Below are positions 30,481 through 61,300 of a stretch of 64,000 nt of DNA, in pieces; position 1 is the stretch's first letter; each line of letters opens with the position of its first letter. Source of the stretch: Amoebophrya sp. A120 (Eukaryota > Protista > Dinoflagellata); NCBI GenBank assembly GCA_905178155.1, contig CAJINV010000023.1, forward strand, positions 293,874 to 357,873. The letters are read 5' to 3'. A model generated the notes under the pieces. It saw only the letters and a program-made list of their open reading frames with translations, was not told where the DNA came from and ran no database searches. The translations under genes and the position numbers were made by a program.

Positions 30481-32040
30481 GAACGAAAGCTCTGTCAATC
30501 CATTTTCTGTACCTCCGCTGAAACGAAAACTGCAAGAGAAGTTTTGAAGAACGAAAAGCGAAGTATCTTTCCACGTTAGTTTGAGACCTGGCTACGTGCT
30601 GACCCAATTGCGTTGTGTGTGTTCTGCGCTGATGAGCATTCAAAATGGAGTGGAACACGCCGGTTACTGTCCCGGTCTGCTAGATGATACGAAGTTCTAA
30701 GGCACAGGACCACGACGTATGTGTCGCTGAAACCAGGGTATTTGAGTCTATTTCATCGCTATTCCAGTAGCGCTGGGTACTTGATCGTGCAGAAGGCACG
30801 GCAGATGAGAGATGACGAAAAATAACACCTCGGAAACGTCGGTTCATCATTGAAATAGTGCGTATTCATTGCTAGAAACGATGGGCTACTCGTACTCATT
30901 GCAGAAGCCTCACCTCCCAAAGATATAACTCGATCGTCTGCGTTTTCACGTGCATTCTCTCGTCCAGAAACATTCTTTCACAGAACCCACTAAGTAAATC
31001 GCCCGAATGTTCTTTTTTGTACTCCCACACGAATAGACTTAGACGAAAAAATCACGTATAGAAGTAGTGTGGGTGTTCACGTTGTAGTATGCGTGGTCTT
31101 CCGCTCCTTCCCCGTAGTATTGACAGTCGCATGATGTTGGATCGATCAGTTATTAGTAGCTCGTTTCGTTTTGACCAAGGGAAGAGAGATCATCGATTGC
31201 GCTCGAGAAGTCGGGAGGCAGTTACGTACTTGGCATCACCACTGAAAGGAAGCCGACGTTCTTTTGAAGATCGGAAGCGTAATATGAATCTCATCTAGGA
31301 GTGGATCAGGCCCTTTCGACCGACTTTCAAAACAATGAAAATAGACTTCTTTTTTTGGTCTGCACCCGGGTTGGCGGTTGATGTGGTGTGGAGAGAGTTC
31401 GTTCATCGATAATTGAGCTGTACTTAGAAAGATGCGACAACAGAAGTACAGTCTGACTCTGGTACAGCTCTTCTAGCGACGCGGTTCTCCTTTACGTGGC
31501 ACAGGTTATTCGTTGCGGCCCGACAAGAATACCAGGACCGCCACTTCGACGTGGTTCCTCCAGTGTTGCTGAGCCAGTGGAGGCCGAGCATCAACCGCGT
31601 TGTGAGCTACTCTCTCATCGGGCTCCTGCAGCGAAGCTCCGGTTCCCCACCCCGCAGGGTGACTTCGTTTTCCGCGTTCCCTCATTATTTAACTCCGTGG
31701 TCGTTGAGGAGAGCGTCTTTATTTCGCGATCTCGAGTGGACTTTCAGCTGCCGCGTCGTTGCCAGTAGAGGACCGCGACTCCAGCGCTGCAACACGAAAA
31801 ACCGCAAGAGCAGCGCGACGAAGGACCACACGGAAGCAGGAGGCGACGTGCTCGCCCTCGTGATTTTTGCGGCAGCTTGTTGCTCCTACGGCTGGTACGA
31901 GGCAGTCGGACTACCTCCACGTGAACGAAGGACCGACTGGCCGAACTTTGCCTTCGCCGCCCCAGCCGACGATCTTCTTCTACCCTCGGACAAGAAGCAC
32001 TTGATCCCACCCGCACTACCCCCACCACCACCGACCCACC

Positions 32041-35000
32041 ATGGCGACCGCCGGTACGCGGAAGACCCGCAAGACGGGCATGATGGCGATGTCCGAGGAG
32101 GAGAAAAGGAGAAACAGCATGGAATTGCTGGAAGAGGAGAAAAAAGCCACCGACTTGAGTATGAATCTGTCAGGATTGAAATCGTCAAAGTTGAAATGGT
32201 TTGTCATGCATAAAATGCAAGGCATGAAGTGCCTGTCCTGCTGGGATGGCAAGTGAGGCAGATTGTGAGCCTATTCAGGGTTCGGGATAGAGTTGCCAAA
32301 GGAGCATGACAAAAGCACTTCTCTGTGCCCAAACAGCATGACAAATTGGATTTTGGTGCTCCGAAAATTTGTATCCATTTTATGCATGACAAATTATTTC
32401 AACTTTGTCGATTTCAAACCTGACGCTTCCATATTGATTTTCGACCTCGTGCGGTCCGGCACGCTTTTAGAAGAGCTCGACCAGGTTGATGTCACCCTCC
32501 TGCCAAAAATCAAGGACGTCTTCCAGAACACGCCGTTCCTCTGCGCCGCCGAATGCAAGAAAACGGACATCATGGCGTTTTTACTCGGGATATGAACTGC
32601 AAAAGTTAAAGTATCGTACTCGTATAAATGCATGACAAATTCTCTCAGCGTGAGAAATGAAATTTGCAATGCGGATTTACGTTGCGAAAAAAACTTGCGG
32701 TGCGTGACTGCAATACGAGTGCGATGCTTTTGCACTTGATACGGGAAGCAGGTATCCGAAGTCGGAGAAGTGTGTGCGAATACGGGCAACACCGCGTTGC
32801 ATCTGTCCGTTTTGAACGGAAATTTTGCCGGTGTGGAGCTGCTGTTGGGAAAGAAAGCCGAGCTGAACATCGCAAATAACGTCGGGTGGACACCGGTAAT
32901 TATGATTTTGAAATTCAATCTCAAACAGCAGCTGAAAATGCAAAATTTAAAGTTTTTGGAAGGCTTACATTCTGTACCTGTGCCATGGTGTGAATTTCGT
33001 TTCTCTGCTACTAGAAAGACTTGCTCAACATTGCTCGCTGAAAAGAGATCTATTCCGTTTTCCGAAAAAAAACAGCACCAAACATCAAAACCAAGGTTTT
33101 CCTCGCAGTTGCGCACAACCAGCCACAGTTGCTCACCTCGTTGATCCAGGCCAAGGCCGACTATGCAATGCAAAAGTATCGTACTCGTATAAATGCATTA
33201 CAAATTAGTCCAGCACTACAAATTCAAATTTGTAATGCTGATTTACCTTGAGGAAAAGATTTGTAATGCATAAATGCAATTACTACGAGTGCGATACTTT
33301 TGCACTGGATACCGACATCGCCAACGCCATCGACCAGGACGGCAATACACCCTTGCACCTCGTATCAAACGCAAATATGTCTGGGTCTGGAAGATTGATT
33401 CCGAGGTCTGTCATGCAGTTTGTCCAAGCTCCACCAAGTCTGGAATGCAGGGCCTAGCATCACAGGATCTGCAGCCCCTCTGTGATGCCTGTTTCGCATG
33501 AGAAATGCCCTTTCAGCATGGCGTGAAATGTTGCGCACCTTTTGCAAGTCACGCAACACAGATTTTTGCATGATCCGGAACATGCATCGCAAGTTGCATC
33601 CTTGCAGAGGCCCCAGACATATTTGCAATGCATAGCTCGCTTGCCAGTATAACAACGTCGATTTGACGTCCCAACTAGTCCTCAACCAAGCGAACCCGGA
33701 CGCAAGGAATTTCGACGGCCTCACCCCCCTAGACAACGCGCAGGAGCACGAGATCTGCAAGGCTTTTCTCCGGGAGGTGCTGGCGCAGAACCAGCAGTTG
33801 ATCTACGCGGCGCGGGACGGTGACACCACGAAAATCACGGAGATACTAGAAGACAACCCGTTACTGGTCAGGTTAGACAAGCGGGTAGACGGGATGTCCG
33901 CTTTGGAGTGGGCGGTGATGATATGCAACGAAAAAACTTAAACTGTTTCCCTGTGGTGATTTTGCACAATCTGCATCACAAGTTTGTTACGCATGACACG
34001 GAAAATCTTTAATGCGGGGTTCCAAAGGAAAAACACAGCTAGAAATCAATTGTCTTGCATGTGTGGCATGACACACACTTGTGCGATCCATTTTCTGCAT
34101 CACAAGTTCACAGTGAGGCATTTTCTTCTTGCGATAGATGAACGGGCACTATGAAGCCGTGCAAGAACTGGTGTCCAGTGGCGCGTACTGCAACATCCCA
34201 AGTCTGCAGAACTTTTTGAAGGTATAAAGTACTTATCAGATTTCAGAAGTTTGTCATGCCCATGCGCTGCGTCCTGCATGAAATTTTTGTGTCATGCTAG
34301 GTATCCTAACACTTCTAAAGATACGCTTTTCAATTTCACATCTAAACAAAAAATAGGTAAACGTCGACGACAATGAGACGCAGGATATGGTTCTCGAGGC
34401 CCTTTCCTGGAACGAAAATCTCCAGCTGGCCCTGAAGCAGGCCAACTGGGATGTGGCGTACACGTTAGTCGACAAGTCTGCCTGTGTTACTTCCCAGGAA
34501 CCCTTTACCGGCCGCACGCCCCTGCACATCGCGTGCTCCCACCTGCAGGAGGAGTGTCCGTTCGACCTCGTGTCGCTGTTAATCACGAAAAAATCGGACC
34601 TGACCGCCCGCGATGTGAACGGATGGACGCCGCTGCTCTGCGCGGCCAACGAGTATCAAATGCAAAAATGTCTGGGTCTGGAGGGATCCAACTTGTGATG
34701 CATGTGGCGGATCATACAAAAATCTGTGATGCGCGACTTGCAAAAGGTGCCAATTTTTGGTCATGCTGAGAGGGTATTTCTCATGCAGAACAGGCATCAC
34801 CAATGGGCTGCAGATCCTGTCATGCTAGGTCCTGCATTCCAGACTTGGCGGAGCTTGGAAAAACAGCATGACAAACTCCTGGACTCATCGAGACCCAGAC
34901 ATGTTTGCATTTGATAACGAGGGCCACTACACCACCTGCGCGTGATATCCAAGAAAAAAACGTTGTTAGTGTAAATTTGTGATGCGTAGTAACATGCAAG

Positions 35001-38000
35001 ATGATTGCGTCGTAAGGCTCATTAAAGGACGTTTTCGCGTACTATCTGCGCATGACAAGTTTTTGCTGTCATGCCAGACAAATTTGTAATGCTGGTCCTC
35101 CAAAAAAGTTACACCTACCACGTTTTTTTCTTGGATACGTGTATTCTGAAGCACGCGACCATGCAGACCCCGGCGCCACCACCGGGGCAGACGCAGGAGA
35201 AAGTCACGGTCGCGAACTCGGTGCTGCAGCCAATATTGAGAGCAAAATCCCCCGTCCCCATGTCGAAAGGGTATGTTTCCGAAAATTTGTGATGCTGATT
35301 TGAGAGCACAAATCACGTCTGTCTTGCAAGAAGACAAGCGCAGAGGCTTCCGCGCCATTATGGAAGCGATTATTTGGCATGCTGTTGGCCCTAGGGGGCA
35401 GCCGTTTGAAATGCTAAACAACTAGACCCAAACGCCCCTACCTAGGCTGAGGGTCTGGATGCGCTGCCTTATTACAAGACAGCGCGCATTTACGTACGGA
35501 AATCCAGCATCAGAAACTTCGTCTCGATATGTGGAGGGGGGATTTTTCCTCACGATAGCCAAACTTCGAAAACGTGTCGCCAATATCAACGGCCATCATG
35601 CGGGACGATGTGGTTCTAATCCGGATATGCATTGCAAAAGTATCGTACTCGTGTAGTACTTGCAGTTCTGCATATACAAATCTAAATTGTTAAGCTGAAT
35701 CCGCATTGCAAATTCAATTTGTAATGCTGAGCAAATTTGTATTGCAATTTGTACCAGTACGAGGCTCTTGCAATCCATACCGGATCTTCGCCGATCACGT
35801 GGAAATGAACAAGGACTCTTTTGCGCGGATGGAGCTCGCACCCTGGACCGATTTGGCAGGAGAAGGGGGGAAGCCGGCAGTGGCCTTTTTGCTCTTTCAC
35901 ACCATGAGCTTCCAGTTCAAGTGCGAGGTAACTATGATACGTAGACTGAATGGCTCGATTTGTTCAGCGTGTAATTGCGGTCTTGAAACCTGTTCATCCG
36001 CCGTGAATACTTGATTTTGGATGCACATGCAGAAAAGTGCATCACAGATCGTGTGTTGTACCTAAGTAGCAATACACATTTTTCTGTAAATACAAATCAG
36101 GTAAAGCAAATTACGCCGTACGTGATGAAGTGCGCCACTAACGCGTTGCAGAGGTCACACCTATCCCACGGGAAAATTTAACACCTAGGTTGTCTACTAG
36201 GAATGTCGCTTGTTGTGTTGCAGTTTTTGCAAAGCCAAACAGGTGGCTATAACAATTGTGCCTTCTGCAGCACAAACAGGCGATCCTTTGCAAATTGTAG
36301 AAGGAATCGTGATCTCTGAGCATAGGTTTTATTTAAGTTGATTGTCGAGCAAGAGCAAGATTGGTAAAATTTTCCCTGGCACATTTTCGCAAAAGAGAAC
36401 ACTTCCGAACAGCAAAAGCCATCTTGGAGGCCACTGCACCGGCAGACGAATACGAGAAAGTCAATTGGGAGAGGGTATAAACTGAATAAATTTAAATCCT
36501 GCTGCTTGAAACAATTTTTTTGTCATGCGGAACTGGGTACGGGAACAATGAATTCGACTACATGCGGGCTTGTGCATGTGAATGTTGTACCACTAGCAAT
36601 ATTCTTATAGAGGCCGTGCGATTAATGGACCCCCTTTTCGGTACCGAAAAGGGGGGGGTAGGTGCGGTCGGTCATCTGGCCGCATCCAAAAATGGTCGCG
36701 TCCCTCCGGACCCGACCGATTTTCGGAATTTAAAAATCGAAAACGCAAATGCGTAACTCCCCCAACCCGGCGAAATAAGTTCTGTTTTGTTTTCAGCGGT
36801 TTCTCAGCGGTTATAATCTCTGCTGCTGCGGTTCCTGCAGCGGCGTGGCTGGAAGTAGAACAGAACGAAACAGAACAACATAAGTTTCGTGGGGCGCACA
36901 CAGCGCGCGCGTGGATTGGCTTATGTTTGCAACAACGCAAGAAGCATCAGGCGCACGCCGTGCGCGCGCAAACTGAAAAAAAAAAAATGCCGCGCGCGCC
37001 GCGTGCGCGCGGCGAAGAGCATGCGTCGTGCATGGCTATGTCAGGACGCTGCGAAGCATTTGCACACAGCTGGAGCTGGCTTCGTGCAGTTCGATGCACT
37101 TCTACTTCAGCAGGCCCACTGCGAATACGAGAAAGTCAATTGGGAGAGGGTATAAATTGAATAAATCCTGCTGCTTCATCAGTTTCATTGCATAAACGAA
37201 AAAAACAAACTTTTTGTCATGCGGAACTGGGTAGGGAAACAAATTGTTTCCCTACCCAGCCCGCATATTTATAGTCGAGTTCATTGTTTAACAATGAACT
37301 CGACTATAAATATGCGGGCTTGTGAATCATGCGAACGTACCACGAGCAATATTTTCAAGTAGAATCGCCACCAGAATTTCATGTGATATATGTGATCGTT
37401 CGCACGTTTTCAAAATAAAAGTGCTGTACAAACTCCATCTCTGTCAGGTATTCAGCCAAGCCCCGGACAAATTTAAAGAGCTGTTGGAGTTCGAGCTGGA
37501 GGTGGCCGTGCGTGACAGCCGACCGAAGGCAAAAGCAAAGGGCAAAGCGACCGGAAACAGCAGCACAACGTCACCCGCCAAAGCTGCGCCGGCGGTTACG
37601 AAACAAGAGACGGAGAAGAAGACAAACCGGAAAGGAAGTCTCACGGGTGACATATCGAATGCAAAAATGGCTGGGTCTGGAAAAGTGCAACTTGTGTTGC
37701 TTGTCTAGCATTCCTGAAAAACCTGTCTTGCATGAGCAGCAAAAGAACAGCTTCCTCGGTCAGGCAAAAACGCAATTTGTAATGCGTGCTAGGCATCAGA
37801 GAGCGTCCCATAAACTTGTCATGCTTGGCTGCGATTGCTAGCGCTACTTCAATCATCCGCAATTCAGCATCACAGGTTTATTCCAGACCCAAACATGTTT
37901 GCATTTGATACGACAAGAAGGGTGACAAAAAACGAAAAACAGGTGAAGAGGAAGACATCATGGCCGGTTTTTTCGGCAGCATGCAGAAACTCAGGTGTCA

Positions 38001-41000
38001 CACCTTACCGACAATCTGCAAAATCGACGCGGAATATTACAAGCTGGGCAAGGTATGAAAATGAAAACGTGGTTTGGTTGCTGTTTTGTCATGCAGGAAT
38101 CATTCCCATTCACACCTAAAGTACTGGAAAACAAGAGGCTCATCATGATGCTGAAGGAAATCGCGAAATTACAGTTCGAAAAAATATTACTGATCCACCC
38201 ACGCCCTATTAAACACACCACAACAGAAAGAGCAAACCCAGTTGCTGATGAGTCCGAAGATCTGCACGTCGGTGGCCATTATGAACTGCAAAAGTATCGT
38301 ACTCGTACAATAAATGCATGACAAATTTCCTCAGCATGAGAAGTAAAATTTGTAAATGCGGGTTTGCCTTTAAAAAAAGATTTGTAATGCATGATCGCAA
38401 TACGAGTACGATGCTTTTGCAGTTGATAGCCATCGAGCTCCTCCTAGAGCGCCGCGCGGACCCGAACATGTTCGACGTGGTCGGGCAAACACCGTTATCC
38501 AATGCAAATATGTCTGCGTCAGGAAGAATGCAAGTTTGTCATGCTTGTGTCACATGGCTCTTGAACCTGTAATGCGTGAGCAGGAAAATAAAAGCCTCTT
38601 ACCTGTCATTGGTAAATGTAGTTTGTCATGCGTGGCTGCTTATTGCAATGCTCCAACAATTCATATCAAATTACCATCACAAGTTTCCAGACCCAGACAC
38701 ATTTCTTTGCACTGCATAGCCGTTATTTTTCCACGCAGGAAAGGATTTGGGCTTGGACAAGTTTGACTCGCAGAACTCCCGATCCGCGTTCTTTTCCGAC
38801 TCCAACTCTCAACCCGGATCGCCAACCGCAGGAGGGGGATCGTCCCCACGAAGCCCGAAATCCCCGAAGATGCTGCGCGGAACCGTTTTCGGCGAGCTGC
38901 AATTACGGCACGCCGCGGCGAACGAGAAGCGCGGGCAGTACCAGACGGAGTTACGGAAGAAGGACTACGCGACGGCCTTGGACAACGCCAGGGAGGCGCG
39001 CATGATCGTGAAGCAGCTGCTGATCAGCGGCGCGGACTGTAATCTGAAGGACAACGCGGGGCGGAGGGCAATTGACTTCGCGAAGTATCCTGAGTAAAAA
39101 TGTCCCCAACCCAGCAGAGTTGTGATGCAAAGCTGCATGCCAAAATAAAAAGTTTCTCATGCGGAGCCCCATGAGAACCATTTTGTAAGCCTGTTTTGGA
39201 ATTTGTGATGCTAGAATCAGCATGATATGCTACATCTATGATGCTTCGGAACTAGCTAAACAGGATTACACAACGAGGAGAAACTTGTCATGCGAAACAA
39301 CCAGAGGTGGCTGATTTGTGTAGCCGATTTTTCATCTTGACTCTGGTGTGGGGACATTTTTACTCAGGATACGAAGGACCCGGTGATCAAGCAGATGCTG
39401 CGGGTGGCGCAGGTCGAGAAGACGAAACTGTACGCTTTGGAGAGCATGAATCTGCAGATTTTGGAGCTGCGGGTCGAGGGGTTGCCGATGAACAAAGAGT
39501 ATCAACTGCAAATACGTCTGGTCCTGGAAACTTGCAATGCTGGGCCGGGATGAATAGTGAATCCTCTGTAATGCACAGCCAAGCATGAGAAATATGTGCG
39601 CTGCTTAGTGTTGCGCTTTCCGCAAGACAAGCTGCGTCGTTGCGAGACAAGTAAAAGGGTTTCTTCTTGGATACGCATCACAAACTCTTCAGTCATACTG
39701 GACAAGCATGACAAACCTTGCATCCTTTCAGACCCAGACATTTTTGCACTGCATAAAGGGCCGAAGTTTCTCATCGCACGGCTGGAGGATCTATCCACAG
39801 TAAGTTTCCCGTACACGTACAAATGCGGTTTCCGCATGACAAAACTTGGTTTCAATCCTAGTCCAGCATGACAAGTTGGGCTCTGCAAAGTTGGGCTCTG
39901 CAAGGTAGCGAAATTTGTCATGCATTTCGTACATGCACAGGAAATTTACATTGCATATGATCTGTTTCGAAAAATCGGGTTGTCGGTCATAAACAGGGAT
40001 GATATGAAACTGCACAATAAACTCTTCTTCCTTTCATTTGTACGGCATGAACAGCAACACAAACTGCAGCACATGTGGATTCTGTACATGAGAAATTCAT
40101 GCGCCTAGAAGTGTCGTTTTGTTTATTAAGCCGCTTCCGGAATCCGAGTCTGTCATGCAAACTGTGCCTTGACGAGGGAAGAGGAAGTGGTCAGCCTCAG
40201 CGCTATAGCCTTGGACTTTTGCATGACAAACGATGGGGGACGAGGGGTTGTGCAATCTCATAAATGATGACGACGACCCAGACGTGACCGACATTAGAAT
40301 CCCGGTCGGCAGCGTGGACCAGAAGCCGCTTGGGTAAGAACTTACTTACCATTTTATAAGCGAAATACGCATGAGAAAAGAGTGCACTGTAGTTCATCCA
40401 GCATGACAAATGAATCGACTTTTTTAAAATTACAAAAACGCAGGTACGCCATTGTGCGGCTGCAGAATCAGACTCCGAAGATATCCTGTGCAAGAAAAGT
40501 ATCGTACTCGTACAAATGCTAATGCAAGTCTTGCATTACAAATCTTGTTTCCAAGGAAAATCTGCATTACAAATTTTATTTCTCATGCTGAGGAAATTTG
40601 TAATGCATTTGTACGAGTTGCGACACTTGTTTTGCAGTTCATAGAAGAACCGCTTCAACGAGATTCAGGATGTGCTTGACCACTGCATGTTGTACAACGA
40701 AAAGACGTATCAAATGCAAACATGTCTGGGTCTGGAAACTTGTAATGCTGAGTTGTGAATAGTGAATTCTCTGTAATGCACAGCCAGGCATGGGAAATAT
40801 TTGCGCTGCTTAGTGTTGCGCTTTCCGCATGACAAACTGCGTTTTGCATAACAAGCAAAAGGGTCTCTTCTTGAGCACGCATCACAAACTCTTCAGTCAT
40901 GCCAGAAAAGCATGACAAACCTTGCAGCATTCCAAATCCAGACATATTTGCAATGCATAAGACGCTCACTTACCGCACGCGGGACAAGTTCCTCGAGGAC

Positions 41001-41408
41001 ATCACGCTCACCGAGGATCTGAGTCTGTCGCACCTCTCCAAAAATGGTATGCAATGCAAAAGCATCGTGCAACTCGTAGTTGTAATGGCAGGCATGCATT
41101 ACAAATCCAGATTTCAAGGTAAATCCGCATTACAAATGACATTTGTAATGCTGAGCAAATTTGTAATGCAATCCATACTAAGTAGTACGAGACTTTTGCA
41201 ATGCATAACCGGCAACGCGCAGCAAAATGAAGTCGCCCCCGGCTGGAAGCTGGTCCTGCTGAACGGGCGACAAATCTCGCACCTCCCCCTCAGCGAAATT
41301 ATGGCGGAATTAGGGCGGATGAAGGAGAAGCAGAAGGTTTTCATCGAGGTCAGAAACCCCAAGCCGCTCGGCAGAATGCGGATCTTCGTCGAGACGCACT
41401 TCGAGTGA
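32041..41408 (+). CDS. Ankyrin-repeat protein with a C-terminal PDZ-like domain; about 28 exons
   Basis: Manual splicing restores ankyrin repeats across junctions (QNTPFLCAA, GNTALHLSV, GWTP-VFLAV, GNTPLHL-ACQY, GRTPLHIAC, GWTPLLCAANE-GH, GQTP-LFF) and a PDZ-like tail (KN-GNAQQNEVAPGWKLVLLNGRQI). There are 19 DR/TIR introns, 6 GT-AG introns (32896-33095, 34222-34356, 35928-36100, 36475-37447, 39800-39940, 40334-40443) and 2 short uncertain ones. Confidence 0.9.
32159..32437 (+). mobile_element. Non-canonical intron / introner with about 55-bp TIR
   Basis: DR TTGA; TIR GTCAGGATTGAAATCGTCAAAGTTGAAAT / ATTTCAACTTTGTCGATTTCAAACCTGAC; join ATDL-IFDL. Confidence 0.85.
32590..32745 (+). mobile_element. 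Non-canonical intron / introner, family B
   Basis: DR CGGGA; join FLLG-KQVS. Confidence 0.9.
33161..33315 (+). mobile_element. Non-canonical intron / introner, family B
   Basis: DR CCGAC; join AKAD-IANA. Confidence 0.9.
33362..33638 (+). mobile_element. Non-canonical intron / introner, family A
   Basis: DR CCTCG/GCTCG; join TPLHL-ACQY. Confidence 0.9.
33921..34140 (+). mobile_element. Non-canonical intron / introner
   Basis: DR GATGA; join EWAVM-NGHY. Confidence 0.9.
34653..34920 (+). mobile_element. Non-canonical intron / introner, family A
   Basis: DR ACGAG; join CAANE-GHY. Confidence 0.92.
34945..35141 (+). mobile_element. Non-canonical intron / introner
   Basis: TIR TATCCAAGAAAAAAACG / CGTTTTTTTCTTGGATA; DR CGTG; join TCAC-ILKH. 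Confidence 0.9.
35233..35561 (+). mobile_element. Non-canonical intron / introner, family D
   Basis: DR GCCAA; TIR AAAATCCCCC / GGGGGATTTT; join VLQP-NFEN. Confidence 0.85.
35625..35783 (+). mobile_element. Non-canonical intron / introner, family B
   Basis: DR CCGGA; join VLIR-IFAD. Confidence 0.9.
36160..36383 (+). mobile_element. Degenerate non-canonical intron
   Basis: TIR remnant GGGAAAATTT / AAATTTTCCC; DR CACA; join QRSH-FRKR. Confidence 0.6.
37652..37914 (+). mobile_element. Non-canonical intron / introner, family A
   Basis: DR TGACA/CGACA; join LTGD-KKGD. Confidence 0.88.
38279..38432 (+). mobile_element. Non-canonical intron / introner, family B
   Basis: DR GCCAT; join SVA-IELLL. 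Confidence 0.9.
38495..38722 (+). mobile_element. Non-canonical intron / introner, family A
   Basis: DR ACCGT/GCCGT; join GQTP-LFFH. Confidence 0.88.
39085..39375 (+). mobile_element. Non-canonical intron / introner, family C
   Basis: DR CGAAG; TIR TATCCTGAGTAAAAATGTCCCCA / TGGGGACATTTTTACTCAGGATA; join DFAK-DPVI. Confidence 0.92.
39499..39759 (+). mobile_element. Non-canonical intron / introner, family A
   Basis: DR AAGAG/AAGGG; close relative of 40707-40963. Confidence 0.85.
40002..40266 (+). mobile_element. Non-canonical intron / introner
   Basis: TIR TATGAAACTGCACAA / TTGTGCAATCTCATA; DR GATGA/AATGA; join INRD-DDDD. Confidence 0.8.
40481..40647 (+). mobile_element. Non-canonical intron / introner, family B
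   Basis: DR GAAGA; join QTPK-NRFN. Confidence 0.9.
40707..40963 (+). mobile_element. Non-canonical intron / introner, family A
   Basis: DR AGACG; join NEKT-LTYR. Confidence 0.9.
41047..41211 (+). mobile_element. Non-canonical intron / introner, family B
   Basis: TIR TATGCAATGCAAAAG / CTTTTGCAATGCATA; degenerate DR AATGG/ACCGG; join SKN-GNAQ. Confidence 0.85.
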
Positions 41409-46100: not shown

Positions 46101-46650
46101 GCTCTTTGGTAATGTGCATGACAGATTTAAGAATCATGCCAGACAAGCATGACAAACTTGCATTCTTCCAGACCCAGACATTTTTACATTTGATATGAAA
46201 AGCGCCAGCGCAATCGTCGAGGAAGAGATGAACCCTTTTCACGAGGTATCAAATGTAAAAATGTCTGGGTCTGGAAGAATGCAACTTGTGATGCTGCATT
46301 TGGATTCCAAAAAAAACTGTATTGCATGAGTACCAAAGGGAATGTAATTTTTGCTACGCGGAAAGGGCATTTGTCATGCGGAATAGGCATCAAGAAGCTC
46401 TCCAAAAATCTGTGATGCTAGGGCATGCATCACAGACATCAGGGCTCATGCAAAACGTGCATGACAAGTGTCAGAATCTTCCAGACCCAGACATTTTTGC
46501 ATTTGTTACGAGGTGGAGGCCACGGCAATCACGAAATCTGCGACCGCTGGTCAAACGCTAGGGGATAAAGAACATCCCACGGAACAGGACGACGCTGCTG
46601 TTGCAATGTCGGTGACGGAGGAAAGTCGAGTCTCGCAAGATATGATGTGA
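43155..46650 (+). CDS. Low-complexity S/T/A/G-rich hypothetical protein, multi-exon (5' part unresolved)
   Basis: From about 44117 onward, removing 44744-44987, 45265-45482 (GT-AG), 45943-46199 and 46246-46512 gives one frame ending SQDMM*. The link to the 43125 ORF is not resolved. Confidence 0.6.
44744..44987 (+). mobile_element. Degenerate non-canonical intron
   Basis: TAT...ATA ends; DR GCTGC/GCGGC; join DDQL-QDTS in frame with the 45012 ORF. Confidence 0.7.
45943..46199 (+). mobile_element. Non-canonical intron / introner, family A
   Basis: DR TGAAA; near-perfect 30-bp TIR. Confidence 0.9.
46246..46512 (+). mobile_element. Introner, family A, with GT-AG ends supplied by its direct repeat
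   Basis: DR CGAGG; join PFHE-VEAT. Confidence 0.9.
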
Positions 46651-50629: not shown

Positions 50630-50631
50630 TT

Positions 50632-51944: not shown

Positions 51945-52358
51945 TTCCACTTACTTAATATTTCTGCGGCGATCTGTTGCTGCGATGAGCATGAAGTTCA
52001 ATATGTGCAGAACTTGTTTTTAGGATGTGATTGAAGAAAGTTCCTTTATTTCTCTGTCTTTGCGTGTGTCGAAAAAACCAGGAGCGAATATATGAGCGTG
52101 TGCATCAACTCCCGCTCCTCCACCATTTGGCATGAAGAATACCAAAAGTACACTCTTCGCCCTACTTTGATAGAAGTACTTTAAGCATGACAACTTTGAT
52201 AGTTCAAGCATTCGTGAAACCCGTTTACAGACTTTTTAAATAGCACACAGCAAGTGCGTTCACTTGCTGTTGCGTGTCTTGCTGCCGGCAGAAGATTTGA
52301 AATACAGGGGGGGAGAGTCATTCATCCACTACCATAGAAAACGCTAACACTCTACCAG

Positions 52359-55300
52359 ATAAAACCCTGTGATGCTGCAAGGGCACAAGGGGGAGACACG
52401 TCGATCCTGCGGGAGGAAGCGGCAGTACCCCTGCGCGCGAGTGGTGAGCACGCTACCGGCAAGGCCGTGGACGCCGAGGCCGTTTATCCTGTGTAAAAAA
52501 ACAGCCCCATCCCAGAGGCAAGATCGCGATAATTCTGGGCTACTTTTGCGCATGACAAAGTTGCTTGGGTCTCTAATGTAGTGGTGTGTGGCTAGTAAGG
52601 CGGCATGAAAAATCTAGCCTCTAAGCCTAATTCGAACGTAAAAGAGCCCTAGAAAAAATAAGAAAATGCGCGTCATCGGGCTGCGCATGACACAAGATCT
52701 CAGCTTGTCCTCGTGTGGGAACGTTTAGTCAGGAGGCCAGTGCATGCATATTTACATGGCAGCTTTTGGGTGGGGACAATTTTCGTCAGGATATCGTCGC
52801 GTCGATTCCTATGGACGTCGAGATGACTCCTGTCGCCGAGAATCGAGTGCATCTTCAACGAAACGAGCATGAAACGGAGATACAGTCGCGGCGCGACCCC
52901 ATATGCAAAGAAAAAAGCTTGTTACACTCACTACTTTGCAGGTTGTGCATGCCAGATTTTTCTGGCGTCGCAGATTTTCTTGTATTGTGCTTGCACAAGA
53001 GAAATCGGCTAGGAAATTTGACTGCTGTGATGCATTTTCATCATGCTACTTGAGAGACAATTTTGTATTGCAAAAATGCGCAATAGCGAATTTTTTCGAT
53101 TTCATACCCCGTCGTGGACTCGGTTGCGCAGCAGCTGGAAAGTATGTCCCTCGAAGAGGCTGCCACGATGAATAAAGGCGGTGAGGAACAAGGCACGTCC
53201 GGGGTCTCAGCTCCTGCGGGGGAGAAGATTGCAGTCTCGGGCGGGGCCGACGAAGATGAGAAAATGCCGCAAGCCACTTCTGCAGAAGAGTCCGAGGACA
53301 CCGCCCGACTGCTATCCACTACGTCGAAAGAGCTGGGCTTATGCATTCGCAATTACATTTGTCTGGGTCTGGGAAGTTGTCATGCTGAAGAATTCTGTTT
53401 GGTAAAATAAGTGACCTGCTTCTTATGCTACAGTACAACATTTCACATTTCTTGGGTATTCGTAGTTGTATGCGAGAATTTCAGCATTACAAATCTCATC
53501 ATGATGTGCTTCCACACGACCCAGGAGACGGCGTCTTTGCAATGGATATGGCACCGTGTCCGGCGAGACTCCGCATGTGGATCAGCCTGCTATCGAAAGG
53601 AACGATCCCCCCTCCCCATATGAAAACGAAATTTCTGATGCTGGTTTTGTGTACACAAATCCAAGCTGTCTTGCTGGAGAGTACTGCAGACCCATACCAA
53701 GTGTACGTAGAGAGGTTTTGGCCTAGGCGCTTAGCATGAAAAACGCCCGCGCTGTAGGCCCAGCAGCATGACAAAACGCCTGCACAGTGCGGCGGTTGTC
53801 TGTGGAGTTGCCTTTTGGCAAGACAGACGCAATTTGTGGCCACAAATCAGCATCACAAATATCCAAAAGTATACCTTTCCAGTATGGGGAGGGGGGATTT
53901 TTCCTTTTGATACCTGCCCCGGCGAACACACCAGAACGGGGAACCCGTGCCGACAGCCAGGAGGGTTCCGGCGCGGCGAACACACCATATGCATTGCAAA
54001 TATGTCTGGGTCTGGATGGTTGGGTCTTGTCATGCTAAATCTGAATCATGTAAAAATCTGTATTGCATGATTACCAAAAGCTGTCCACGTGTGACCTAAT
54101 CGAGATGCAGTTTCTGATGCAGGATAGGCATGATGGAGACCTCACAGAATCTGTCACGCGAGGCTCTGCATACCAGACCTCATGGGTCATGAAAAACCTG
54201 CATGACAAGTCTGGCACTCTTCCAGACCCACACACTTTTGCAGTTGATACACCAGAGCGGGGAACCCGTACCGACAGCCAGGGCTCTACATCGGAAAAAC
54301 CAGCGGCGAAACCACCACCAGGCAGGGGCAAGCCGTATGGATTGCAAATATATTTGTATTTTCTGGCTCCACCTCTCGGTCGTGTGTCGTGTAAGACATG
54401 AGTCAAAACTTTGCCATGTTTGATGTCGCAAAGCAGCGCACCCACCGGTTTTGTATTGTATTGTTTTGAAAAAAATGCAAATTCCGCGGGCGCTAAGTAT
54501 GTGAAACAAGCAGTCGCGAATCAAGAAAAACTTGCCATCCGTGGGTGCGTAATAATTCTGGTTTTGCTTATCGTCTACAGGATGGCGTCATAATTTTCCA
54601 AACCAACACAAACACTGGAAGAACTGCATATAATTTGCAACTTTCATAAACCGCCCCGGATCTTCGAGGGAGGCAGGAGTCGCGTTCCATCAAACGGTAG
54701 CGCCGGTGGAGTTGCTGCGAAAGCGGTCGTGGGATCCAGCAGCCCAAGCAGAAGTGCGGATAATAAGCAGGACGCGCGAAGCAGCGCGTCGTCTCTATCA
54801 ACTGCAAGATCGCCCTATGCATTGCAAAAGTACTATCGTACTCGTATTGATGCATAACAAATTTCCTCAGCATGAGAAAGAAAATTTGTAAATGCGCATT
54901 TACCTTACGAGCAAAATTTCTAATGTATGCATGTTTGCAATTACTACGAGTGCGACACTTTTGCACAGGATACACCCTGGGAGCGTCTTGCCTCGGCGTC
55001 CGTGGGCGACCTGCCGCGAATGGATGTGGATTGGATGGTCACATCCTCACAATACGCATTGGAACATCAAAATTGTCCGGGTCTGGAAGTAGAATCCAAA
55101 CTTGTCATGCTAAATCTGAATCGTACGAAATGAAATTAAATCTGTGTTGTACATGTACTATGACTTCCGACACAATTTACCCACTTCTTGCCACGCAACC
55201 GGCAAAGCTCTCATGCGGACTTGGTAAAGGCTAAGGCATTGTACAAATTCGAGGCTCGTCTTGCAGGATCATGTGTGAAGATGCTTTTGGTTCGTGCAGC

Positions 55301-58300
55301 ATCCCAGACCAGTTTTGTGATCCACGAGATGCATAGCAAATCTTGCTCTCTTCCAGAAGATCCAGACATATTTGCACTGGACACGCAGATGACCAGTGCT
55401 GTGGTTTGCCAGGCGTCTCGTTGCGCGGTATGAATGGCAAAAATGTCTGGGCCTGGAAGATTGGAACACTTGTCATGCACATCTTGCATGAACGATGATG
55501 CCTGTAATGCATGACCTAGCATCAGAGATTTTGCGAGGGCTTCCTGATGCCTATACCGCATGAGGAACACGAATACCCCCACCGCGTAGCATAAACTGAA
55601 CTCCTCTTGCTCCTCACGCAATACAGATTTTTTTGGAATCCACAGACAGCATGACAAGTTCCATCCTCCCGCCGGACCCAGACATTTTTGCACTTGATAC
55701 GCGGACCGCGAAGACGACGGAGATTCAGACGACCAGGGCAGACCGTCGGGCGTCAGCCAGCGGCAGCTATCAAGTGCAAATATGTCTGGTTCTTGAAACT
55801 TATGATGCTAAAATGTGCATGATGAAAACACTTCCTCATACAGGAAAGCATAAAAAATCTGCGCAGAGCTTTATCATACGAACTCCGCATGAGAAGCTGT
55901 GTTTTTATATGACGTGACAGGCTGCCACTTTTGTTGGTCATGCAACAGCAACACAGATTTGACAGGAATGCAGGACCAGCATGAAAAGTTCCAACTTTCC
56001 AGACCCAGACAGATTTGCATTGGATACCAGCGGCCGCCTCGCGACGATGATGAGGACAGCTTCGAAAAGCTCGAGGAGTATGCATTGCAAATATGTCTGG
56101 GTCTGGAAACTTGTGATGCATGTCAGTAAAAAGAAAGCTAAGCGCACTGTAATGCACCGCCAGGCATGACAGATTTATCCTTGGCTTCGTGTTGCGTATT
56201 TCGCATGATAAACAGCGTTTTTGCATGACAGATAAGAGGAGCTCTTGCTGGCCGCACAATACAGAGCTCAGTTTCATGCCCGACTAGCATGACAAATCCC
56301 GCAATCTTCCAGACCCAGACATTTTTGCAATCCATAAGGAGGCAGCCGATCGAATGTCCTACGGAGTATCCAAGCCATCACCAGCTGGCGCGCAGAAGAA
56401 TGGTGAAGACGGCGATGATGATGATGATGATGACGAAAATGACGGCTGCAACGGCGAGTTTTTCGACGAGCAGTCAGAAAGCGGGCGCTGCAGCTTCGGA
56501 CCCGCGGCAGCGAGTGACCCGGGTGTGTGGGGGGCGAATTTCCTCGTTGGATCACTGACGCAGCAGTTTGATCAGGTTGCTCAGCTTGACGCGGTCGGGA
56601 GGCAGGATTCGAAAGGCGGAGGTCGATCGTCCTATCATGAGTGAAAACCCCCTTTTTACCCCATGTTGTTCAAAGTGATGCTGAATTTGTCGTATACACG
56701 AAGCAGGAGCCCCGTCACGTTTGGGGTCCCGGGCCTGCCGGTTTTGTTCCCGCGCGCTCCCTCGCTGAACGCCTGGAAGAATACGGCAGGAAGCATCGAT
56801 GGCGCAGGCAGCAGCCTGCGCACCTGGGGAGAGCGCATTTCAAGTAATATTAGTTTGAGGCCTTTGGTGGAAGTCCCGGGCAGTTTTGTTTATACGAATG
56901 TGACCCCCGCAAAATATTCCCTGGGCCTTTTGTAGCGCAGTGCGGCGCCCTATTTTGAGGCAAAGCCCAGCCCTTTTGCTTTTCGCGCGCTCAGCCACTG
57001 CGCGCCCGGAAATAAAAAAGCGGCGGGGGTGTTTCCCTGCCGCCCGGCCTCCTTCCATCCGCTATTACATTACGGGAAGCAGCGGCCAAAAGATTTTCGG
57101 CAATTCCCCCCCTGGGGTGCGGCTTTTCGGCCGCCCGGCTCTCGCCATTTTATCACGGGGGCCAGCGGCAACAACTTTTTCGGCAATTCCGCCTCCTAGG
57201 GTGCTGCTTTTCGGCCGCCCGGCTTTCGCCATTTTATCACGGGGGCCAGCGGTACACAGGTGAAATATGCCCCCGCCCCCGGAAGTGAGCAATTCTGGGG
57301 TGCTTAGGAGGCACCCCATCTGGTGCTCAGGAAGCACCCCGTCTGGTGCTTAAGCGCGTCGCGCCAGGGCTGCGTGCTTTATTAGGGTCAATATCTCGCG
57401 CTTGGCTGAAGAGTCAAGCTGCGCTCAATGAAAAAGAGGAACGGGGCATCTCTACTGCCCCAGACCGCGGGTTCCATCGCCATAGAAATACACCTAAACC
57501 ACCTCGATCGGACCATGGTGACTATGGGGCCTGTATTTTATCACTTAGTTATAGTGTTGCGATTCCGACGCTAGTATTTCTACTGCCCTTCGTTATACTT
57601 ACTCTGCCTGCCTTCGGCAAGAAGTTACTTAACTCCTAGTCCGAAGTTGGCTCTCGGGCAAGCTTCAAGCTTTTGGCGCGGTCATGCACAGAAACGAAAT
57701 CTGGAAAAAGCTCGACAGGCGAGCCCAATTATGGATCGGCAAGTCCGCCGATCCGGGTGTCACATAGAAACCCGATCTGCCGGAATCCGGCGGCGCAGAA
57801 GGAGCCGACTTCGTCGCCGCCGAATCGGGCCTGTAGCATGCGGATTCCCTTTAGAAAAGCCGCGATCTTTTGAAGCGCCAGATCCCGGCAGATCGGGTGT
57901 CTATGTGACACCCGGATCGGCGGACTTGCCGCATCGGACAGGTGCAGCGCTCACCTTTTGGCGCCTGCATGCAAAAACCCAACGTGTGTGCTGCAAAATG
58001 TCACAAGTTGAGCGCTCGTATGCCTACGATACCACAGCGCTCAGGGTGTGAAGCTGGCTCATCGCCGGAATGGATCATCTTTGCTCCCTGAGCAGATGGC
58101 CATCACCCCATGAGCTTGAGGTCGCGTAGCCTACTGCGTTTTTGTTCATCGCGGCGCCGTGCGTAATATTTTTACCCTTGGTCGAGAGGTAACAACTGGA
58201 ACGGGCCAGGAGATTTTGTTCCCGCTGGTCAAACAAGGTTACTTGCCCGCCTGGCCAGGACCAGGAGTCTACTTTCTTGCTCCTGGGGCTCGAAGTTCGG

Positions 58301-61300
58301 GCCCCCGCGGTATCAAAGGGGCAGATGGGGTGCTTCCTAAGCACCAGATGGGGTGCCTCCTAAGCACCCCAGAAGTGCTGATTTCCGGGGGCGGGGGCAT
58401 ATTTCACTTGTGTAAGCGGCAACAACTTTTTCGGCAATTCCGCCTCCTAGGGTGCTGCTTTTCGGCCGCCCGGCTCTCGCTATTTTATCACGGGGGCCAG
58501 CGGCAACAACTTTCTCGGCAATCCCACCTCCTAGGGTGCTGCTTTTCGGCCGCCCGGCTCTCGCTATTTTATCACGGGGGCCAGCGGCAGCAACTTTTTC
58601 GGCAATTCCACCTCCTAGGGTGCTGCTTTTCGGCCGCCCGGCTCTCGCTATTTTATCACGGGGGCCAGCGGCAACAACTTTTTCGGCAATTCCACCTCCT
58701 AGGGTGCTGCTTTTCGGCCGCCCGGCTCTCGCTATTTTATCACGGGGGCCAGCGGCAACAACTTTTTCGGCAATTCCACCTCCTAGGGTGCTGCTTTTCG
58801 GCCGCCCGGCTCTCGCTATTTTATCACGGGGGCCAGCGGCAACAACTTTTTCGGCAATTCCACCTCCTAGGGTGCTGCTTTTCGGCCGCCCGGCTCTCGC
58901 TATTTTATCACGGGGGCCAGCGGCAACAACTTTTTCGGCAATTCCACCTCCTAGGGTGCTGCTTTTCGGCCGCCCGGCTCTCGCTATTTTATCACGGGGG
59001 CCAGCGGCAACAACTTTTTCGGCAATTCCACCTCCTAGGGTGCTGCTTTTCGGCCGCCCGGCTCTCGCTATTTTATCACGGGGGCCAGCGGCAACAACTT
59101 TTTCGGCAATTCCACCTCCTAGGGTGCTGCTTTTCGGCCGCCCGGCTCTCGCTATTTTATCACGGGGGCCAGCGGCAACAACTTTTTCGGCAATTCCACC
59201 TCCTAGGGTGCTGCTTTTCGGCCGCCCGGCTCTCGCTATTTTATCACGGGGGCCAGCGGCAACAACTTTTTCGGCAATTCCACCTCCTAGGGTGCTGCTT
59301 TTCGGCCGCCCGGCTCTCGCTATTTTATCACGGGGGCCAGCGGCAACAACTTTTTCGGCAATTCCACCTCCTAGGGTGCTGCTTTTCGGCCGCCCGGCTC
59401 TCGCTATTTTATCACGGGGGCCAGCGGCAACAACTTTTTCGGCAATTCCACCTCCTAGGGTGCTGCTTTTCGGCCGCCCGGCTCTCGCTATTTTATCACG
59501 GGGGCCAGCGGCAACAACTTTTTCGGCAATTCCACCTCCTAGGGTGCTGCTTTTCGGCCGCCCGGCTCTCGCTATTTTATCACGGGGGCCAGCGGCAACA
59601 ACTTTTTCGGCAATTCCACCTCCTAGGGTGCTGCTTTTCGGCCGCCCGGCTCTCGCTATTTTATCACGGGGGCCAGCGGCAACAACTTTTTCGGCAATTC
59701 CACCTCCTAGGGTGCTGCTTTTCGGCCGCCCGGCTCTCGCTATTTTATCACGGGGGCCAGCGGCAACAACTTTTTCGGCAATTCCACCTCCTAGGGTGCT
59801 GCTTTTCGGCCGCCCGGCTCTCGCTATTTTATCACGGGGGCCAGCGGCAACAACTTTTTCGGCAATTCCACCTCCTAGGGTGCTGCTTTTCGGCCGCCCG
59901 GCTCTCGCTATTTTATCACGGGGGCCAGCGGCAACAACTTTTTCGGCAATTCCACCTCCTAGGGTGCTGCTTTTCGGCCGCCCGGCTCTCGCTATTTTAT
60001 CACGGGGGCCAGCGGCAACAACTTTTTCGGCAATTCCACCTCCTAGGGTGCTGCTTTTCGGCCGCCCGGCTCTCGCTATTTTATCACGGGGGCCAGCGGC
60101 AACAACTTTTTCGGCAATTCCACCTCCTAGGGTGCTGCTTTTCGGCCGCCCGGCTCTCGCTATTTTATCACGGGGGCCAGCGGCAACAACTTTTTCGGCA
60201 ATTCCACCTCCTAGGGTGCTGCTTTTCGGCCGCCCGGCTCTCGCTATTTTATCACGGGGGCCAGCGGCAACAACTTTTTCGGCAATTCCACCTCCTAGGG
60301 TGCTGCTTTTCGGCCGCCCGGCTCTCGCTATTTTATCACGGGGGCCAGCGGCAACAACTTTTTCGGCAATTCCACCTCCTAGGGTGCTGCTTTTCGGCCG
60401 CCCGGCTCTCGCTATTTTATCACGGGGGCCAGCGGCAACAACTTTTTCGGCAATTCCACCTCCTAGGGTGCTGCTTTTCGGCCGCCCGGCTCTCGCTATT
60501 TTATCACGGGGGCCAGCGGCAACAACTTTTTCGGCAATTCCACCTCCTAGGGTGCTGCTTTTCGGCCGCCCGGCTCTCGCTATTTTATCACGGGGGCCAG
60601 CGGCAGCAACTTGCTCGGCAATCCCACCTCCTAGGGTGCTGCTTTTCGGCCGCCCGGCTCTCGCTATTTTATCACGGGGGCCAGCGGCAAAAACTTTTTC
60701 GGCAATTCCACCTCCTAGGGTGCTGCTTTTCGGCCGCCCGGTAAGTATGGGAGCGAGGGGGGGCGGGGTTTTCATTTTCATACGCCTCGGGCCGCACCTT
60801 CGCGGACGCCGGCCGGGGGAGCTCCTCCGCGCTCGAAGCTCTCGTCCGCCAACAGCCGCAATCGGCAGCTACGCATGAAGAGCGCTGCCGGGTCGAGAGC
60901 GGCGTCGCGAGGCGGCAGCCGGGCAGGGTCAGCGTGCCCCTCCGCAACGGCCACGGCCGAGGACGTCGTGGCGCGGCTTATCGCCTCGGACTCGAATTCC
61001 GAGAGTGATGGCCGGACAAGCGGACACGGGAGTCGTGCCGAGTCTAAAAACGCTTCGGAAGATTCAGGTGAGTCTGGTGGGCGCGGCTCAGATGGCGAGG
61101 ACGAGGACGGCGGGCGTGTCTCCTTTTCCAGCGCAAATTATGCGTTGCAAACATGGCTGCCTCTGGAAGTAAAGCTGTGATGTGCGTTTCAGATCACGCA
61201 GAAATCTGGTATGCATGGATAGCAAAAGTTGCTCACCCACTACTTGTCACTAGAAGAAAGGACTTGGCATGCAGCGGGCTAGGCCTTGAGAAACATCCTG

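Follow-up and report, generated by a model that had tools for sequence, protein, structure and literature searches.

A single cut register fits all twenty non-GT-AG introner introns in an ankyrin-repeat gene of Amoebophrya sp. A120

All 20 non-GT-AG introns of an ankyrin-repeat protein gene in the parasite Amoebophrya sp. A120 fit one common cut register, in which the intron reads N-TAT...ATA-NNNN and the cuts lie 1 base before and 4 bases after an inserted element (introner). The gene lies in the window, which here means the whole 64,000-nt stretch of DNA that was analysed. Introners of A120 are already known, and the one-and-four rule is the apparently new part. An earlier note, made from the sequence alone, had already linked the inserts to the introners that Farhat et al. 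2021 reported in Amoebophrya; they are those elements, and the host proved to be A120 itself. The elements, their hairpins and the gene model have been published, while a fixed register was not found stated in the relevant sections of the A120 work, though the figures of Farhat et al. (Fig. 3, S19-S25) may reveal more of it than the text does. The gene and its introns are given below; each intron is a joint in RNA-like contigs.

32041..41408, +, ankyrin-repeat protein gene, 27 coding exons, 1037 aa; transcript contig 31360-42326
32159..32437, +, introner intron GT-GA; joint 32154/32434; repeat TTGAG/TTGAT, 5th base from downstream copy; informative
32590..32745, +, introner intron AT-GG, family B
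32896..33095, +, canonical GT-AG intron
33161..33315, +, introner intron CT-GA, family B
33362..33638, +, introner intron GT-TC, family A
33921..34140, +, introner intron AT-TG
34222..34356, +, canonical GT-AG intron; one subterminal motif inside
34653..34920, +, introner intron GT-GA, family A, reverse orientation relative to 33362; AG 1 base downstream unused
34945..35141, +, introner intron AT-TG; repeat CGTGA/CGTGT, 5th base from downstream copy; informative
35233..35561, +, introner intron AT-CA, family D
35625..35783, +, introner intron AT-GG, family B, reverse orientation relative to 32590
35928..36100, +, canonical GT-AG intron
36161..36387, +, introner intron CT-TT, right end ACA; joint 36160/36388, 1 ambiguous base
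36475..37447, +, canonical GT-AG intron, 973 nt, donor region duplicated internally
37652..37914, +, introner intron AT-AC, family A
38053..38226, +, canonical GT-AG intron; 5' end introner-like (G-TAT-N7-AAA plus subterminal motif)
38279..38432, +, introner intron TT-CA, family B; long predicted hairpin, z = -9.65
38495..38722, +, introner intron TT-CG, family A
39085..39375, +, introner intron GT-AA, family C; AG 1 base downstream unused
39499..39759, +, introner intron GT-GG, family A; joint 39498/39760; repeat AAGAG/AAGGG, 4th base from upstream copy; informative
39791..39961, +, introner intron CT-AT
40002..40266, +, introner intron AT-TG
40334..40443, +, canonical GT-AG intron; two subterminal motifs
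40481..40647, +, introner intron AT-AG, family B
40707..40963, +, introner intron GT-AC, family A
41047..41211, +, introner intron GT-CG, family B; repeat AATGG/ACCGG, bases 2-3 from upstream copy

RNA-like contigs lack 26 introns over 32041..41408, where the earlier note had listed 27 junctions, and 20 of them are non-GT-AG, where it had counted 19; its picture of introners alternating with ordinary introns was borne out, six GT-AG introns lying in the same gene. Spliced at these 26 joints, the model is 4713 nt long, as is the X3 contig, and holds a single 1037-aa frame, identical to a deposited Amoebophrya sp. A120 protein, which identifies the host of the window and already has the 26 joints. 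The claim that removal of each insert with one repeat copy restores ankyrin motifs was thus confirmed, with ankyrin repeats matched by Pfam in the spliced protein, while a PDZ domain, expected along with them, gave no Pfam match at E<=1. PDZ appeared in the spliced protein as an Atlas lead only (score 0.81). All 20 introner joints are present in RNA-like contigs of two samples (X1, X3), each insert being skipped with one repeat copy; the RNA status of X1 and X3 is a tool's guess, they belong to one study, and GT-AG introns are skipped in the same contig. Contig-level RNA data conceal minor isoforms. Among raw RNA reads, 118 of run X8 and 3 of run X9 matched element ends in part, and neither run covered the ankyrin gene.

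Mismatches between the two repeat copies leave one register for all 20 joints. The sole 5' overhang compatible with them is 1 nt, at least 1 being demanded by the introns at 32159 and 34945 and at most 1 by those at 36161 and 39499. The most informative joint is that of 36161..36387, where the direct repeat is all but gone (ACACC/TTTTC) and the cut spacing is the same. Two protein-level cases accompany these four informative RNA joints of one study: at locus L035 the A120 protein has K (as do 35 of 52 homologs scored), which requires the upstream copy to supply repeat bases 2-4, and at L043 the A25 ortholog has F, as the register predicts; the protein search for L043 returned only this ortholog and no A120 protein. 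The asymmetric register follows the sense strand in all five cases that exclude its mirror image (41047, 39499, 36161, L035, L043), an agreement of about 1 in 32 if it tracked a randomly oriented element; no same-family pair in opposite orientations with informative mismatches was found. Six registers restore the frame, and only the one-and-four register places TA at +2/+3. In this register U at +2, A at +3 and T at +4 occur in 20/20 introners, and all 12 GT-AG introns examined start with GTA.

Removal of the elements from DNA before transcription, either programmed or transposase-driven, as for the internal eliminated sequences of ciliates, would suit their TA-ended inverted repeats and transposon origin, and a minor excised template is possible, rare variants being dropped from DNA contigs. 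Against it, DNA-like runs X5 and X7 (one sample) contain 0 of 11 joints tested and their contigs run unspliced across exon-intron borders, the RNA-like runs also hold low-depth unspliced contigs, and the sense-strand linkage of the asymmetric register is at odds with it, so that we regard excision from DNA as very unlikely. A hairpin with a short direct repeat is the classic setting for template-switch artefacts, and the elements fit it; the joints could then be reverse-transcriptase switches across hairpins at direct repeats, with the gene dead or spliced elsewhere. However, 36161-36387 is skipped precisely without a usable repeat, retention of any single one of 19/20 inserts brings a premature stop, ankyrin repeats and orthologous sequence continue across the joints, and 13/20 inserts have no frame-compatible GT-AG pair within 15 nt, which makes this origin hardly credible. 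Use of nearby GT-AG pairs instead, named in the earlier note as an outcome that would speak against it, was checked, and the contigs do not use them.

The inserts with terminal inverted repeats and a 5-bp repeat that the earlier note described are real and far above chance: TAY..RTA inserts with an exact 5-bp repeat and an end-to-end score of at least 6 number 17 in the window, compared with 0-3 in each of 30 dinucleotide shuffles. The proposed total of about 50 inserts corresponds to 20 RNA-checked introners and 29 hand-collected candidates without an RNA check (2 of the 29 without a matching repeat), RNA support being confined to the 20. The 5-bp repeat holds as a rule but is perfect in only 10 of the 20 introners of the gene (8 have one mismatch, 1 has two and 1 has four), and the TAY..RTA ends hold generally, with one right end reading ACA; across the 40 ends, T, A and T occupy positions 1-3 in 40, 39 and 40 cases, and A occupies positions 11-13 in 35, 37 and 35. 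When strong ends were paired without a repeat condition, an exact 5-bp repeat flanked 216/324 elements (29 from the window and 295 from A120-like loci), at most one mismatch was found in 272/324, and exact repeats of 4, 6 or 7 bp in 0/324. Statistics beyond the ankyrin gene cover the window and 149 loci (561 kb) picked by one family-A end pattern, and are family-A-biased; the ends in this set were picked by a TAT-based profile, which makes T at +2 circular there, the unbiased figure being that of the 20 RNA joints. The profile scan replaced a loose end-pair scan, which was noisy (233 versus 49-83 in shuffles). In A120-like contigs 153 stretches match one end pattern, indicating genome-repeated elements, and the pattern had 0 matches in viral contigs. 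Two further features of the window belong here.

52330..56644, +, part of a neighbouring gene with 11 predicted introners; same-register removal opens a 452-codon frame, predicted from DNA, start undefined
57253..58414, no strand assigned, 1162-bp TAC..GTA element; near-perfect terminal repeats, AGCGG duplication

The latter element has landed in a single unit of an 84-bp tandem array, the remaining units of which represent empty sites, and it gave no Pfam match in four frames. The traits of a MITE are present, namely terminal inverted repeats, a fixed-length target duplication, an empty site and no coding capacity, and a search of the window and of 7 longer TAT..ATA spans (457-1031 bp, with no open frame above 151 aa) found no transposase. 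Between 9 and 14 of 14 terminal positions are pairable in each of the 20 introners, giving predicted stems, in which the terminal TAT/ATA pairs are predicted to be weak (probability <0.3) in 5/20. The strong predicted folding would also agree with self-splicing ribozymes, but the window has no Rfam match, the interiors are family-specific, and the elements function in both orientations, unlike a catalytic fold (families A and B are each spliced in either orientation within the ankyrin gene); we therefore give a ribozyme next to no credence.

The introners begin with AT (8), GT (7), CT (3) or TT (2) and end in 11 different dinucleotides, in agreement with the first dinucleotides and arbitrary last ones described before; with a GT start in 7/20, an AG end in 1/20 and both in 0/20, they fall outside the U2-type GT/GC-AG pattern. 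Among 129 frame-oriented elements, +1 is A39 C24 G39 T27, and at +1, -2 and -1 the composition is that of the exon background (p 0.30, 0.23, 0.14). Every one of the 16 possible first/last-base pairs is represented (independence p 0.12), GT-AG in only 6/129, and the elements do not keep to a U2-type compatible first/last pair (G-G or A-C). The 5' and 3' end profiles of these 129 elements are mirror-identical, neither G at +5 nor a branch-site U is enriched, and the first exon base after introners is G43 A33 T31 C22. In 5/7 GT-starting introners an AG lies within 3 nt of the used 3' end, and the contig ignores it. Conversion of introners into GT-AG introns found no significant support (19/51 versus 84/311, p 0.14), many of the 'orphan' ends being internal or belonging to long elements.

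A recognition route independent of GT/AG must exist beside the canonical one. The reading that we favour, with about even confidence, is that paired ends stand in for U1/U2AF recognition and feed a relaxed spliceosome core. A non-autonomous DNA transposon would insert and duplicate 5 bp, a duplication visible in the empty-site array at 57253; the element ends would then pair in the transcript and draw the exons together regardless of orientation. The cut N1-N4/N5-TAT...ATA-N1-N4/N5 (slashes marking the cuts) drops one repeat copy and restores coding, even with a decayed repeat, as the RNA joints show. An adaptor reading the end stem may fix both sites by distance, bypassing U1 and U2AF; N-U-A-U would enter the U5/U6 core at the normal +2/+3/+4 register, with one of the adenosines in the terminal ATA, at 5 or 7 nt from the intron end, as putative branch point, and GT-AG introns would stay on the ordinary route.

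The TA at +2/+3, as in canonical introns, points to a shared catalytic core, although the absence of a first/last-base constraint points against it. According to Table S4 of Farhat et al. (PMC7789003), the nine top site types are NT-xx in A120 and TT-xx in A25 (9/9 each). U1 snRNA is undetected in A25 and A120 and snRNP27 is listed as not detected, while strain Kv has canonical introns and U1. SNRNP27K loss accompanies +4 U in fungi (PMC10581693), and this link, together with +4 T in 20/20 and the undetected snRNP27, is counted in favour of the spliceosome. Non-canonical introns of tunicates are processed by a modified U2 spliceosome (PMC13326754), and Stentor uses a branch A with a 5-nt tail (PMC9505925). 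Exon ligation by the spliceosome normally requires a non-Watson-Crick first/last base pair; the free end bases, mirror ends and ignored AGs all argue against it, as would an end stem predicted to mask +2 to +20, which are needed for U6 pairing. The TA match may also be a coincidence of about 1 in 6, and a transposase could fix the ends. What was proposed earlier as a second excision system holds for removal at the RNA level and for GT/AG-independent recognition, whereas a separate non-spliceosomal chemistry stays a candidate, with the TA at +2/+3 pointing away from it and the free end bases towards it.

Such a chemistry, the strong form of the earlier proposal, which we consider quite possible though short of probable, would act on the same elements in the same register: a nuclease (tRNA-splicing-like or transposase-derived) would bind the end stem and cut in a stagger, 1 nt beyond the stem on one side and 4 nt on the other, and a ligase would join the exons, probably setting free a circle or a linear intron. 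It is favoured by free first and last bases in mirror-symmetric ends lacking a branch-site or +5 bias, by splicing of families A and B in both orientations in one gene, by disregard of AGs adjoining the 3' end, and by adjacent canonical introns that are strictly GT-AG, so that tolerance is not general; for the motif-plus-spacer code of Euglena, the authors propose non-spliceosomal factors and circular excision (PMC12501133). Nevertheless, the TA at +2/+3 is common to all 12 canonical introns examined, U1 and snRNP27 are undetected exactly in the introner strains, which suggests that the spliceosome itself has changed, and no candidate enzyme has been identified. A tentative proposal goes further: a non-spliceosomal machine, measuring from a symmetric transposon-end stem (N-TAT...ATA-NNNN), would take out about two thirds of the nuclear introns of this parasite with a one-and-four stagger, whatever the flanking sequence, and would ligate the exons. 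It would have arisen independently as a Euglena-like second splicing system, with a now defined code, and would let the transposon family insert anywhere in a gene without a scar and in either orientation.

The published A120 introners (Farhat et al. 2021, PMC7789003; Gozashti et al. 2025, PMC12130899) are the same elements in the same organism, sharing RNA-supported non-GT-AG splicing, inverted repeats of TAT, seven variable bases and AAA, short direct repeats and no internal transposase. Farhat et al. described splice sites as variable relative to the hairpin without clear signature, and repeats 3-5 nt long (5 bp according to one figure legend), whereas one register fits 20/20 here with 5-bp repeats; the 32 A120 family rows consulted in the table of Gozashti et al. 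give mixed sites and duplications of 2-6 bp, and the sections consulted do not mention the subterminal motif. Nonconventional introns of euglenids (Nomura et al. 2025, PMC12501133) likewise have paired terminal triplets at a fixed cut distance, lack GT-AG and stand alongside canonical introns, and noncanonical introns of hemistasiid diplonemids (PMC12621601) are grouped with them; a MITE origin has been proposed for both. Relative to these accounts, A120 has TAT/ATA rather than CDG/CH'G, and spacers of 1 and 4 rather than 3 and 5-6; its exon starts do not favour a purine, its families are young and repeated, their duplications still intact, and its lineage is unrelated. The euglenid code N3-CDG...CH'G-N5-6 with a purine exon start thus does not describe the A120 introners, while a euglenid-like end pairing is predicted. 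Most introns of Fritillaria borealis (PMC13326754) also escape GT/AG, there through a U2 spliceosome with changed recognition factors; about half of its termini fit an isosteric first/last pair, while in A120 neither base looks constrained, a symmetric hairpin being the signal. IS3EU/GingerRoot elements (PMC10045372), a clade with an integrase-like DDE transposase, have short terminal inverted repeats with TA..TA, occasionally TG..CA, termini, of which A120 elements share TA..TA; membership was rejected on the usual 6-bp duplication there, against exact 6 bp in 0/324 and 5 bp in 216/324 here.

How 65% of A120 introns are removed without GT-AG has been a question since 2021. The fixed register turns 'variable splice sites' into a code in which every introner boundary is predictable; it would amend annotations in which a boundary shifts inside the repeat, it names two candidate branch adenosines, and it indicates where the ends of a lariat, a circle or a nuclease product would lie. 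Either outcome would be notable, a spliceosome freed of its first- and last-base requirement for one class of introns or a second nuclear splicing machine.

The inserts claimed by the earlier note are present in the sequence at the positions it gave. Its count of about 50 in the window stood (20 RNA-checked introners in the gene plus 29 further sequence-based candidates), while its count of 19 in the gene rises to 20; at least four families of inverted repeats had been claimed, and four end families are visible. Inserts that combine an exact 5-bp repeat with an end-to-end score of at least 6 numbered 17 in the window, versus 0–3 per shuffle (30 shuffles). When strong left and right ends were paired with no repeat required, exact 5-bp repeats flanked 216 of 324 elements and copies with at most one mismatch 272, and exact repeats of 4, 6 or 7 bp flanked none.

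Host strain A120 and the matching element description identify the inserts as the Amoebophrya introners of Farhat et al. 2021, as had been proposed. According to the accessible portions of that study, more than 60% of introns are non-canonical, the inverted repeats open with TAT, seven variable bases and then As, direct repeats span 3–5 nt, and the removal mechanism is given as unknown (PMC7789003). Our exon search returned one deposited protein, P0001, labelled Amoebophrya sp. A120 and identical to the spliced model; therefore, the system, and even the gene model, was already known, and the inserts are already known as A120 introners. Ankyrin repeats were found by Pfam as expected, but the anticipated PDZ domain gave no Pfam match. 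For the C-terminal residues 853-1037 of P0001 (window 39430-41405), PDZ clusters came up as a lead in the Atlas (score 0.81), and residues 853-945 appear RRM-like by eye, both without Pfam confirmation.

Four runs whose RNA status was guessed contained 26-33% of the stretch's words, near the exon share of the gene (3114/9368 bases). In the RNA-like runs X1 and X3, which come from two samples of a single study, contigs skip 15 introns in a first alignment and 11 in a second, among the best supported joints listed, and their listed exon pieces show no letter differences. Raw-read runs X8 and X9 gave no coverage of the gene. The 26 joints (27 had been listed previously) are present in RNA and yield 4713 nt, identical in length to the X3 contig, with a single frame of 1037 aa; this contig represents a spliced transcript, because six of its joints are GT-AG. 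Retaining any single insert causes a premature stop in 19 of 20 cases, and the 20th adds 55 residues. With 20 introner joints skipped in these contigs and the protein frame restored, the proposed removal from transcripts is borne out, and the inserts are real and expressed.

The position of each joint is ambiguous, because the direct repeat flanks the insert, and splice sites were previously described as variable, 1-5 nt away from the hairpin (PMC7789003, in part). This ambiguity was resolved through mismatches between the two repeat copies. In the RNA joints, the fifth repeat base derives from the downstream copy in introns 32159 and 34945, and the fourth from the upstream copy in introns 36161 and 39499. 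Only a 5' overhang of 1 nt combined with a 3' overhang of 4 nt (the 1|4 register) is permitted by 20/20 joints; four joints pin it, and the remaining 16 are compatible without each pinning it alone. Intron 36161-36387 has lost its repeat (ACACC vs TTTTC) and carries ACA in place of ATA, with unchanged cut spacing. That this repeat-less intron is still skipped, and the protein restored, makes a template-switch artefact at the joints exceedingly improbable. Excision at the DNA level is also very unlikely, since none of the 11 tested joints appears in X5 or X7, two DNA-like runs from one sample whose contigs continue unspliced across the borders, and the register follows the sense strand in 5/5 cases excluding the mirror image.

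At the A120-like locus L035, outside the window and 100% identical to the deposited A120 protein P0004, the K in P0004 requires bases 2-4 of the upstream copy, and K is found in P0004 and 35 of 52 homologs scored. At a second locus, L043, the F predicted by the 1|4 register is the residue in the ortholog of strain A25. In the neighbouring gene, a 452-codon frame emerges once 11 predicted elements are taken out, and any of six registers would preserve it. The nine commonest A120 site types in Table S4 of Farhat et al. are all NT-xx, and those of A25 only TT-xx (PMC7789003, in part), which fits the 1|4 register. Gozashti et al. 2025 reported sites of mixed type and duplications ranging from 2 to 6 bp (PMC12130899; 32/58 A120 rows, one dataset). 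Searches of the openly accessible literature found no published statement of the register (subscription papers, e.g., Roy et al. 2023, were outside reach), nor in the available parts of PMC11282704, PMC9860276, PMC11453091, and PMC13149111. Four informative RNA joints, together with two cases at the protein level, define a splice code, N-TAT...ATA-NNNN, that depends on neither the direct repeat nor GT/AG. Window 55053-55383, where the ends are TAC..ACA and the repeat has decayed (CACAA/CGCAG), offers another opportunity to test whether cutting is independent of the repeat.

Reading frame gave the orientation of 129 elements; in these, exon background is matched at the first, last, and second-last intron bases, the 5' and 3' ends mirror each other, and all 16 first/last base pairs occur, with GT-AG in 6/129. 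Of seven GT-starting introners, five leave unused an AG that lies no more than 3 nt from the 3' end. Within the gene, members of families A and B are spliced out in either orientation, and this orientation independence, like the lack of an Rfam match, leaves self-splicing with hardly any probability. Between 9 and 14 of 14 terminal bases are pairable in 20/20 introners, with the outermost TAT/ATA pairs predicted weak in 5/20. A subterminal motif, GCAT(G/C/T)A(C/G)AA, points inward from each end in 304/324 elements, is absent from 4323 exon bases, and looks like a putative transposase-binding repeat. It also occurs in 0/6 GT-AG introns of L035 and 4/6 of the gene:
34222-34356 (+), GT-AG intron with the motif
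36475-37447 (+), GT-AG intron with the motif
38053-38226 (+), GT-AG intron with the motif
40334-40443 (+), GT-AG intron with the motif
These four may have started out as introners and acquired an AG acceptor, a wider test being not significant. Three of them start with GTAT and carry the motif 29-45 nt in, like an introner left end. The introner at L035:4696-4964 has GT-AG ends by chance in the 1|4 register, its dinucleotides being those of a canonical intron. Canonical introns of the gene and L035 have mostly A/C-rich 3' ends without a polypyrimidine tract.

Two recognition routes must exist, because the GT-AG class keeps strictly to its ends and introners disregard both dinucleotides. Of the second excision system proposed beside the spliceosome, a separate recognition route is therefore retained, and separate catalytic machinery is one of two competing readings. 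Removal by a modified spliceosome has about an even chance. In its favour, the 1|4 register alone among six places TA at +2/+3, as in 12/12 canonical introns, and +4 is T in 20/20 introners; according to the portions available of each source, +4 T pairs with unmodified U6 and accompanies SNRNP27K loss in fungi (PMC10581693), U1 and snRNP27 were not detected in A25/A120 (PMC7789003), the tunicate U2 spliceosome is adapted to non-canonical ends (PMC13326754), and Stentor has a branch A with a 5-nt tail (PMC9505925). U1 is present in strain Kv, with canonical introns (PMC12005148, in part). Counting against the spliceosome, introner ends showed no first/last-base pairing, branch-site bias, +5 bias, or orientation bias, and the predicted stem hides the donor. 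Removal by a nuclease-ligase is a somewhat less probable alternative, modelled on Euglena, where a motif-plus-spacer code has been described and non-spliceosomal factors and circular excision have been proposed (PMC12501133; PMC11170887, both in part). Noncanonical introns have also been described in hemistasiid diplonemids (PMC12621601).

Insertion itself is recorded by one element:
57253-58414, element of 1162 bp whose TAC..GTA terminal repeats are near-perfect, with an AGCGG duplication
It lies in a tandem array of 84-bp units (57080-60741), where it fills one unit and the others are empty; the filled unit with its AGCGG copies, beside empty units, directly documents an insertion that duplicated 5 bp, and shows that this happens in non-coding DNA as well. 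This element is a longer introner relative in non-coding DNA, and four of its frames gave no Pfam match. The TA..TA ends of introners recall those of IS3EU/GingerRoot, whose duplications, unlike the 5 bp here, are usually 6 bp (PMC10045372, in part). No transposase was found in the window, including the 1162-bp element (four frames, Pfam), or in seven longer TAT..ATA spans of 457-1031 bp. Three long spans (834-1031 bp) each have an exact 5-bp repeat and lack any long reading frame:
L025:632-1465, TAT..ATA span
L065:4767-5797, TAT..ATA span
L073:6024-6995, TAT..ATA span
Each could be a long or nested element, or reflect the chance pairing of neighbouring ends.

Other repeats were noted in the window. 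An exon end plus donor is duplicated within the 973-nt intron (36450-36530 and 37125-37225), the second copy being unused in RNA contigs. A low-complexity gene part (52330-56644) contains 11 predicted introners, and in its exons near 53913-54335 a unit recurs, either carrying an insert or lacking it. Each copy of a duplicated stretch (50380-50700 and 51760-52030) has an introner-like insert without matching 5-bp flanks, and two near-identical family-A elements lie 52 bases apart (45944-46508). Arrays are as follows:
2508-3523, array of a 308-bp unit
9604-11481, array of a 308-bp unit
15939-18277, array of a 308-bp unit
46900-49750, AGACATG-rich arrays
63415-63980, 142-bp array

The defined N-TAT...ATA-NNNN code is what this analysis adds to published work, and it makes the removal mechanism of the introners directly testable.
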